DNA from: Escherichia phage ECO95 1-6-1
Strand: one strand, 5' to 3'
DNA: 1,601 bases
Sequence record: OR845807.1
Shown here: piece after piece, positions 120 to 1,333 of the stretch
Layout of the letters: each line of letters starts with the position of its first letter
Numbering within the stretch: position 1 is the first letter of the stretch
Translations under genes and position numbers: made by a program
Notes under the pieces: generated by a model
Told to the model about the DNA's origin: nothing
Database searches by the model: none
What the model saw: only the letters and a program-made list of their open reading frames with translations

Positions 120-1010
120 TCAGGCTGCCAGATCATCGTTTCCGATGGAAGCATAATAAGCTTTTTCTGCTTCTGCCGGAGGAGTATGGCCCAGCCTTCC
201 CAGCAATCGTCGATTGTTATACCAGTCCACCCACGTTAGTGTGGCCAGTTCCACTTCTGCACGGTTTTTCCAGCTCTTACGGTGTATTACCTCCGCTTTG
301 TAAAGACCATTGATGCTCTCAGCCATCGCGTTGTCATACGAGTCGCCTGTACTCCCTGTTGATGCCAGTAATCCGGCTTCTTTTAGTCGCTCCGTATAGG
401 CCAGTGACACATACTGAGAGCCTTTATCGCTGTGATGGATGGTGCCAGACGGACGACGGGCCCACAACGCCTGCTCCAGCGCATCCAGCACGAATGTCGT
501 TTCCATAGACGATGAGACCCGCCACCCCACGATGTATCCGGCAAACACATCAATGATAAACGCCACATAGACGAAGCCCTGCCATGTGCTGACGTAAGTA
601 AAATCAGCCACCCACAGCTGGTCAGGTCGTTCTGCCACGAACTGACGGTTTACGCGGTCGCCTGCGGCAACGGCTTTCCGGCTGATGGTCGTACGGACCT
701 TTTTACCCCGGAGAACACCGGCAAGTCCCATAACCGCCATGAGACGTGCCACTGTACATCTGGCCACCCTGATTCCTTCCCGTAACAACTGACGCCAGAC
801 TTTACGCACACCGTACACCTGATGATTTTCATCGTATACGCGCTGTATCTCTCTCTTCAGCCAGTCGTCGTGCTGCGCACGGGCACTGCGTTTATCCGGA
901 TGATGTCGCTGTTGCTGACAATGGTAATACGTTGACGGGGCAATATGCAGTTCGCTGCATACCGGTCCGACCCCGTACTGCTCACGCAGCTTATCCAGCA
1001 GTGGCATCAT
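120..1010 (-). CDS. IS3-family transposase OrfB (296 aa from first ATG), DDE/RNase H-fold catalytic domain; probably also made as an OrfAB fusion by -1 frameshifting
   Basis: ORF of 296 aa in the -1 frame relative to orfA, with its ATG overlapping the orfA TGA (ATGA). Catalytic triad located by codon: D136 (603..605, in WVADFTYV), D195 (426..428, in HHSDKGSQY), E231 (318..320, in AESINGLYK), with K238 seven residues after the E. D-to-E spacing is 35 residues, the DD(35)E signature. Stop TGA at 122..120. Confidence 0.85.
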
Positions 1011-1015
1011 TTTTT
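1007..1015 (-). promoter_or_regulatory. orfA/orfB overlap: A6 run followed directly by the orfA TGA stop overlapping the orfB ATG; candidate -1 frameshift or translational-coupling site
   Basis: Minus-strand sequence CTC TGG AAA AAA TGA TGC in the orfA frame. The A6 run is at plus 1010..1015 and the stop at 1007..1009. The orfB ATG (1010..1008) overlaps the stop as ATGA. The -1 frame is open for 21 codons upstream, back to a TAA at 1076..1074. The canonical IS3-family A AAA AAG heptamer is not present. Confidence 0.5.
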
Positions 1016-1333
1016 CCAGAGGCGGTCGAACTCCGCCTTCGCAAAATAAGCGGAAGCCTGGCGAAGGATATCGTTACTGCGGCGCAGTTCACGATTTTCA
1101 CGTTCCAGCTCTTTCAGACGCTGACGTTCAGCGCTGGTGAGCCCACCATCACCGCCCCCGGTATCCCGCTCATGCTGGCGAACCCAGACACGCAGAGTCT
1201 CCGGCGTACAGCCAATCTTTGGGGCAATGGAACAAATTGCCGCCCACTGTGAGTCATATTCATCCTGACTTTCCAGAACCATACGAATCGCCCGCTGACG
1301 GACTTCGGGGGAAAAACGAGTATTTTTAGTCAT
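1007..1333 (-). CDS. IS3-family transposase OrfA (108 aa): N-terminal helix-turn-helix DNA-binding region and C-terminal leucine-zipper-like region
   Basis: ORF of 108 aa from ATG (minus strand, 1333..1331) to TGA (1009..1007). A Shine-Dalgarno-like AAGAGG sits 8 nt upstream of the ATG. The C-terminal segment [25 protein letters not shown] has the heptad Leu/Ile spacing typical of IS3-family OrfA. Sequence resembles IS629/IS1203 OrfA from memory. Confidence 0.85.

Follow-up and report, generated by a model that had tools for sequence, protein, structure and literature searches.

The DNA examined here is a 1,601-nucleotide stretch of Escherichia phage ECO95 1-6-1 (record OR845807.1; "the window" below means this whole stretch), and most of it is occupied by a complete insertion sequence of the IS3 family, IS629/IS1203, which lies on the minus strand (Table 1). 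An inverted-repeat search returned arms at 76-102 and 1363-1389 with 89% complementarity, within which the element's terminal repeats lie. Between them are two consecutive overlapping genes, orfA and orfB; the orfB frame is the orfA frame minus one, and the overlap window is 21 codons long. By megablast the element is 99.9-100% identical in DNA sequence to E. coli O157:H7 copies labelled "IS3-like element IS1203 family transposase", and it is found in 4290 of 5426 complete E. coli genomes at a median of four places per genome. The exact OrfA, OrfB, and OrfAB sequences have already been deposited as IS1203-family transposases, and RefSeq annotates identical copies with a CDS that is a two-piece join marked "programmed frameshift" and with a sequence feature named "AL1L pseudoknot". 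The element is thus IS629/IS1203, a very well known member of the IS3 family. IS629, IS1203, and IS3411 belong to the IS51 group of ISfinder, and the present copy has in common with them a length of 1310 bp, imperfect inverted repeats of 25 bp, a 108-amino acid OrfA and a 296-amino acid OrfB in the 0 and -1 frames, and a frameshift cassette whose recoding region is without any difference.

Table 1. Features of the element and of its orfA/orfB junction, in window coordinates
Feature	Position	Strand	Description	Basis
IS629/IS1203 element (IS3 family)	78..1387	minus	complete, 1310 bp; ends 5'-TGAACCG...CGGTTCA-3'	near-identity to annotated copies
Left terminal inverted repeat	1363..1387	minus	25 bp, imperfect	inverted-repeat search and IS ends
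Right terminal inverted repeat	78..102	minus	25 bp, imperfect	inverted-repeat search and IS ends
orfA	1007..1333	minus	108 aa, ends ...LWKK*	helix-turn-helix HTH_Tnp_1 PF01527, E 2.4e-12
orfB	120..1010	minus	296 aa, starts MMPLL	HTH_21; rve DDE integrase core PF00665 (E 9.3e-28); rve_3
orfA/orfB overlap	1007..1076	minus	bounded by TAA (1076..1074), after which the -1 frame is open, and by the orfA stop TGA	codon listing
U_UUU_G slippery tetramer	1042..1046	minus	orfA codon UUU 1045..1043; post-slip codon UGC	in frame; conserved
ALIL pseudoknot, Rfam RF01497	936..1052	minus	full match, model 1-117 of 117	121.5 bits (gathering score 50), E 1.1e-32
SL1	1021..1037	minus	GGCGG (1037..1033), loop AGUUCGA (1032..1026), CCGCC (1025..1021)	-9.8 kcal/mol alone
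A6 run	1010..1015	minus	A_AAA (1013..1010) with UGA in the A site; possible secondary -1 site	codon listing
orfA stop TGA	1007..1009	minus		codon listing
AUGAUG	1005..1010	minus	two in-frame orfB AUG codons (1010..1008, 1007..1005)	codon listing
SL2	936..975	minus	six-base internal loop UCGGAC (970..965)	Rfam match and alignment pairing

The surroundings of this copy come from two different loci. On the left the element adjoins the 3' end of a fimbrial chaperone gene, in which strain NZRM3614 has an insertion bordered by AAC on both sides, and on the right it adjoins a phage tail tape-measure gene, in which strain 7784 has an insertion bordered by GCG on both sides. Unlike its named relatives the present copy lacks a 3-bp target duplication (its two borders read AAC and GTG), a difference that concerns its genomic history only, and the whole window is present in one place in no complete E. 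coli genome (best coverage 95%). The mismatched flanks and the lack of a genome with the whole window together suggest that two IS629 copies recombined, or else that the assembly is chimeric, and the missing duplication is read as the mark of a recombinant copy and not as evidence against membership in the IS3 family.

The earlier note on this DNA, made from its letters and open reading frames, recognized an IS3-family orfA/orfB junction that could give OrfAB by -1 frameshifting, and the protein domains, the relation of the two frames, the Rfam match to RF01497, and the RefSeq annotation all agree with it. Its description of the junction is also accurate in several respects when the codons of the overlap are listed: the -1 frame opens after the TAA, 21 codons ahead of the orfB ATG, the A6 run abuts the orfA TGA, the first orfB AUG overlaps that stop codon as AUGA, and there is no A_AAA_AAG heptamer anywhere in the overlap. 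It erred, however, in calling the A6 run the only slippery candidate. Two Z_ZZN tetramers are found among all of the orfA-frame codons of the overlap, the A_AAA that is followed by the U of UGA, and a T_TTT (1046..1043) followed by G, and the latter (U_UUU_G in the RNA) is in frame 33 bases farther upstream. Nor is an A6 run in itself unusual here; the window contains two such runs where 1.16 are expected, and at least two occurred in 62 of 200 shuffled versions. The only Shine-Dalgarno-like sequence upstream of the orfB start is a GGA, as judged by eye from the sequence.

The U_UUU_G motif lies at the head of a known frameshift stimulator. RF01497, the ALIL pseudoknot, is the sole match of the Rfam scan of the window; its model opens with the conserved UAUUUUGC, which corresponds to the T-run (the T-run falls at model positions 5-12), and continues with the 5-nt spacer GCGAA. 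SL1 accordingly begins 5 nt past U_UUU, and six bases of its apical loop, GUUCGA (1031..1026), are complementary to the internal loop of SL2 through five Watson-Crick pairs and one G-U pair. The 45-nt linker that separates the two stem-loops holds the A6 run, the UGA stop codon, and AUGAUG. Atkins et al. 2016 (PMC5009743), with reference to Mazauric et al. 2008 (J Biol Chem 283:20421), credit the ALIL pseudoknot with stimulating -1 frameshifting in IS3411 and describe it for no fewer than 27 further IS elements; in it the stem-1 apical loop pairs with an internal loop in another stem-loop, which lies 44-104 nt downstream. The present junction has the same full-length match, the same 5-nt spacing, the same internal loop in SL2, and the same 6-bp pairing of apical and internal loops. 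The IS629 clade differs from the ALIL consensus in having GUUCGA/UCGGAC in place of GCUCGA/UCGAGC, that is, one compensatory change from C-G to U-A and one change from U-A to a U-G wobble, and the pairing is kept. Folding of plus-strand positions 950..1006, which the earlier note had recommended for finding a stimulatory structure, would reveal the SL2 half of this pseudoknot only; SL1 lies upstream of the A run and is outside that interval.

The conservation of these features was followed through more distant relatives. The matches of a protein search were all near-identical entries from E. coli, with no diverse relatives among them, and the comparison uses 80 loci encoding relatives of OrfB (53-100% OrfB identity) taken from contigs at one genome per species; they come from Proteobacteria, Acidobacteriota, Spirochaetes, Chloroflexi, Actinobacteria, and other phyla. 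The 80 loci give 57 distinct orfA/orfB junctions, all of them in the 0/-1 arrangement, and these were anchored on SL1, the orfA stop being an unreliable landmark in four defective copies (L006, L028, L041, and L072), which have stopped too early or carry an insertion. A T_TTT or T_TTC lies 33-39 nt ahead of the orfA stop in 51 of the 57 junctions (and in 49 of the 53 rows of the alignment described below), and in several relatives the T-run is lengthened into T_TTT_TTC or T_TTT_TTT, heptamers that are stronger; the six junctions with no T_TTY are mostly defective or insertion-bearing copies. The A run has a much narrower distribution. An A_AAN that abuts the orfA stop is present in 15 of the 57 junctions, 14 of which are enterobacterial and IS629-like (OrfB identity at least 66%; the other is L042), and within those 14 it is invariant whether TGA, TAA, or TAG comes next. 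The ATG that overlaps the stop as ATGA is found in 14 of the 57 junctions and in only three of the 15 with a stop-abutting A run, the remainder of which have ATAATG or ATAG in its place. An ATG at the second position is more frequent (30 of 57), and in ten of the 57 the orfB frame lacks a start codon at up to 12 nt from the stop; the fusion is thus the conserved product.

The RNA structure is similarly widespread. Full-length matches to RF01497 were obtained in all 20 diverse relatives that were scanned, at 84-119 bits. In a gapless alignment of 53 sequences and 122 columns, scored for SL1, the loop-loop helix, and SL2, 91.3% of the cells of the whole structure form standard pairs, as against 33-45% when the partners are slid by one to three columns, and the covariation score of 0.236 was reached by none of 500 shuffles. 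SL1 is paired in 96.6% of cells and the six-pair loop-loop helix in 97.5%. Two pairs of that helix have changed on both sides, one from C-G to U-A in 14 sequences (these are the IS629 clade, including the window) and the other from G-C to A-U in five sequences, and six pairs of SL2 also show changes on both sides. There is almost no variation in SL1 or in much of the motif region, so the support from covariation comes mainly from the loop-loop helix and SL2; the coding of this region in two frames also limits its sequence change.

It is very probable, then, that the junction is a programmed -1 frameshift cassette in which OrfAB arises chiefly at U_UUU_G under the influence of the ALIL pseudoknot and OrfA arises by termination, with A_AAA-UGA as a minor site and AUGAUG as a possible start for OrfB. 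Most ribosomes would read orfA through to its UGA and release the 108-amino acid protein. A minority would slip back by one base as tRNA-Phe decodes the UUU within U_UUU_G, the slip being promoted by the pseudoknot, in which the SL1 apical loop should form its 6 bp with the SL2 internal loop about 60 nt farther on; ribosomes that slipped would continue in the orfB frame and make a 404-amino acid OrfAB transposase. A slip at A_AAA_UGA would be at best a minor second route, and it would have to depend on the stop codon alone, since SL1 should already be melted by a ribosome that has reached the A6 run. AUGAUG may permit some separate synthesis of OrfB, although OrfB by itself is not the transposase. 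In this scheme the anatomy of the junction, its membership in the Rfam family, its conservation, and its covariation are direct observations, and from them the frequencies and products of frameshifting are predicted. The IS629 cassette is not new in itself; it has been characterized, modelled in Rfam, and annotated by RefSeq. It follows the same 0/-1 orfA/orfB logic as the sites of IS911, IS150, and IS3 (A_AAA_AAG or A_AAG with a stem-loop or an H-type pseudoknot), having like them a slippery motif late in orfA, an RNA structure downstream, and an activity set by the OrfA:OrfAB ratio, but it differs from them in that a U_UUU tetramer takes the place of the lysine heptamer, and a loop-loop pseudoknot of long range that of the local hairpin or H-type pseudoknot.

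The deposited proteins reflect more than one placement of the frameshift. For the same DNA there are three versions of OrfAB that differ in the position of the join: 394 contigs carry the one joined at the T-run, 213 carry one joined one base later in the T-run (...AYF-GEGG...), and 158 carry one joined at the A run (...LWKK-MMPLL). The separate OrfA is deposited for at least 1000 contigs and the separate OrfB for 425. Most of the deposited fusions are thus joined at the T-run (394 plus 213 against 158). The comparison of junctions favours the T-run product as the reference OrfAB.

The earlier note had offered a slip on the A6 run and a coupled OrfB start at ATGA as the two choices, a pairing that omits the best-supported route, the U_UUU_G slip with the ALIL pseudoknot. 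The A-run slip fares better as an addition to that route than as its replacement. It is conceivable, if doubtful, that in the enterobacterial IS629 clade A_AAA-stop is a selected second site independent of the pseudoknot, yielding an OrfAB isoform in which 11 junction residues differ and which has a distinct regulatory role. The invariance of the A run whatever stop codon follows it is compatible with a real second site, and dual coding could also account for that invariance. Slips of -1 on homopolymeric runs adjoining a stop codon, the so-called "shifty stop" slips, were reportedly described by Weiss et al. 1987, and the present site resembles them in having the same A_AAA directly before UGA with the -1 frame open; compared with those cases the evidence here is circumstantial, consisting of conservation in essentially one clade, and there is no structural stimulator. 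Chen & Hu 2006 reportedly identified TTTTG (T4G) and AAAAT (A4T) as two -1 signals of IS629 that give two OrfAB isoforms, and if this is right the A-run slip is a documented second site and not the sole one. A two-product model of IS629 has thus been in print since 2006, and the only new element of the second-site reading would be the gain of A_AAA-stop by one clade in addition to an ancient ALIL cassette.

[quoted passage not shown] The tetramer is in frame next to the stop and can re-pair without a mismatch in the -1 frame, its conservation in the 14 enterobacterial junctions and the 158 contigs with the corresponding fusion are in keeping with its use, and a product made there would accord with "Two frameshift products...IS629", as Chen & Hu 2006 entitled their paper. 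A stop-abutting A run is, however, missing from 42 of the 57 related junctions, all of which retain orfA and orfB in the 0/-1 arrangement. According to Sharma et al. 2014 (PMC4066793), tetramers alone frameshift barely above background when there is no downstream structure, bacterial stimulators start 4-10 nt past the motif, and A_AA.A comes last among the six tetramers that respond when a pseudoknot is present (A_AA.G >> U_UU.C > U_UU.U > C_CC.U = C_CC.C > A_AA.A). SL1 falls within that range of U_UUU, whereas SL2 starts 35 nt past the A run and is outside it. The earlier note's suggestion of a stimulatory structure downstream of the A run also finds no support in the folding: the 34-nt interval from the A run to SL2 folds at -8.6 kcal/mol, no better than shuffled sequences (z = -0.45), and the consensus fold after the A run in 11 members of the clade has two pairs at -0.56 kcal/mol, with no conserved structure. 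On these two results a stimulatory hairpin in that interval was rejected. SL2 is downstream of the A run but its partner SL1 is upstream of it, so the geometry of the pseudoknot serves the T-run and not the A run; with a ribosome on AAA-UGA, SL1 would already be unwound and the pseudoknot should not be intact. A slip confined to the A run would, moreover, leave the conserved T-run and pseudoknot unexplained. The part of the earlier proposal that survives is thus a possible minor second site, and the part that does not is the A run as the main route.

It is very unlikely that OrfB is made solely as a separate 296-amino acid protein, through termination and reinitiation (translational coupling) at AUGA with no fusion at all. 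The AUGA overlap and a second AUG do exist in the present copy, more than half of the relatives have the second ATG, the 296-amino acid OrfB is widely annotated, and in one paper IS629 OrfB, studied on its own, is stated to reduce transposition (PMC5771124). Against this, the overlap is not a conserved feature even among close relatives, some of the junctions offer no nearby start codon, and GGA is all that resembles a Shine-Dalgarno element upstream. In the literature the active transposase of the IS3 family is the OrfAB fusion, which joins the OrfA helix-turn-helix to the OrfB DDE core, and excision of IS1203v/IS629 is driven by supplied OrfAB; a separate OrfB would also leave the conserved frameshift cassette without an explanation. 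A coupled start at ATGA, as the earlier note envisaged it, may contribute some OrfB, but it does not yield the transposase.

Some IS elements use transcriptional realignment, and the homopolymeric A run at the junction could in principle let RNA polymerase add one A to A6 and so produce an mRNA with orfA and orfB in frame, but efficient bacterial transcriptional slippage is known from runs of about nine or more, the six A's are shorter than this and absent in most relatives, and such slippage does not account for the conservation of the T-run and pseudoknot; this mechanism was rejected for the short, non-conserved run and can be given almost no weight.

The U_UUU_G slip with the ALIL pseudoknot thus remains the preferred account of this junction. 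Beyond correct annotation the result has little significance. Its practical value lies in the fact that public OrfAB sequences conflict as to where the two parts are joined, at the T-run in either of two registers or at the A run. IS629/IS1203 ranks among the main causes of genome rearrangement in E. coli O157:H7, with rates of transposition and excision that are set by its OrfA:OrfAB ratio; if the enterobacterial clade does use A_AAA-stop as a second site, the clade-specific gain of that site would have tuned transposition.

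The window carries hybrid flanks (1-77 and 1388-1601) around its IS629 copy, and the 3-bp target duplication is absent there (AAC / IS / GTG). The 1388-1601 flank matches an insertion in a chaperone/usher fimbrial locus (NZ_CP032793, target duplication AAC); for the 1-77 flank, the matching insertion interrupts a phage gene for tail tape-measure protein (NZ_CP018247, target duplication GCG). The whole window was found in one place in none of the complete E. coli genomes; these observations suggest homologous recombination between IS copies, as an inversion or a deletion, or else a chimeric assembly. 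The flanking ORF encodes the C-terminal domain of a fimbrial chaperone, and its TGA stop codon (1387..1385) consists of IS bases 1-3. The IS thus supplies the stop codon, and the chaperone is therefore truncated by the insertion; at the sister locus the native chaperone frame resumes past the IS as ...VN-DYGVN....

Features of the flanking ORF and of the junction pseudoknot (A1, gapless alignment of 53 junction sequences)
Feature	Position	Strand	Evidence
Fimbrial chaperone ORF, PapD_C domain	1385-1600	minus	PF02753, E 1.8e-12
Loop-loop helix	A1 columns 24-29 + 85-90 = window 1031..1026 + 970..965	minus	

The identical element (DNA of window 120-1333) is represented in databases by three differing OrfAB fusion sequences (P0121, P0122 and P0047). 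The deposited joins lie at the U_UUU_G motif (F-C), one base later (F-G), or at the A6 run abutting the orfA stop (KK-MM), and frameshift annotation of this one element varies between submissions.

Short contigs of Acinetobacter idrijaensis (L002, 1268 bp) and an uncultured Clostridia MAG (L003) bear IS629 copies that share 98-100% identity with the E. coli element; these copies probably reflect contamination or misbinning and not true host range.

One relative, from a Rhodothermales MAG (L072:491-612), has a palindromic insertion (GGCACCGGTTCCCGGTGCC, ∼18-21 nt) in the linker between stem-loop SL1 and the orfA stop, which lengthens the SL1-SL2 distance. In L006:1448-1569 and L034:1457-1578 the U_UUU_G motif is mutated (TTATTTGG) or the motif and SL1 are degraded, and the orfA stop of L006 is premature; both look like decaying, inactive elements. 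In the loop-loop helix the IS629 clade departs from the family consensus at two pairs: C-G is replaced by U-A, a compensatory change, and U-A by a U-G wobble. At this wobble position L004, L008 and L070 have an A/G mismatch, and so the pseudoknot of these three relatives may be weaker.
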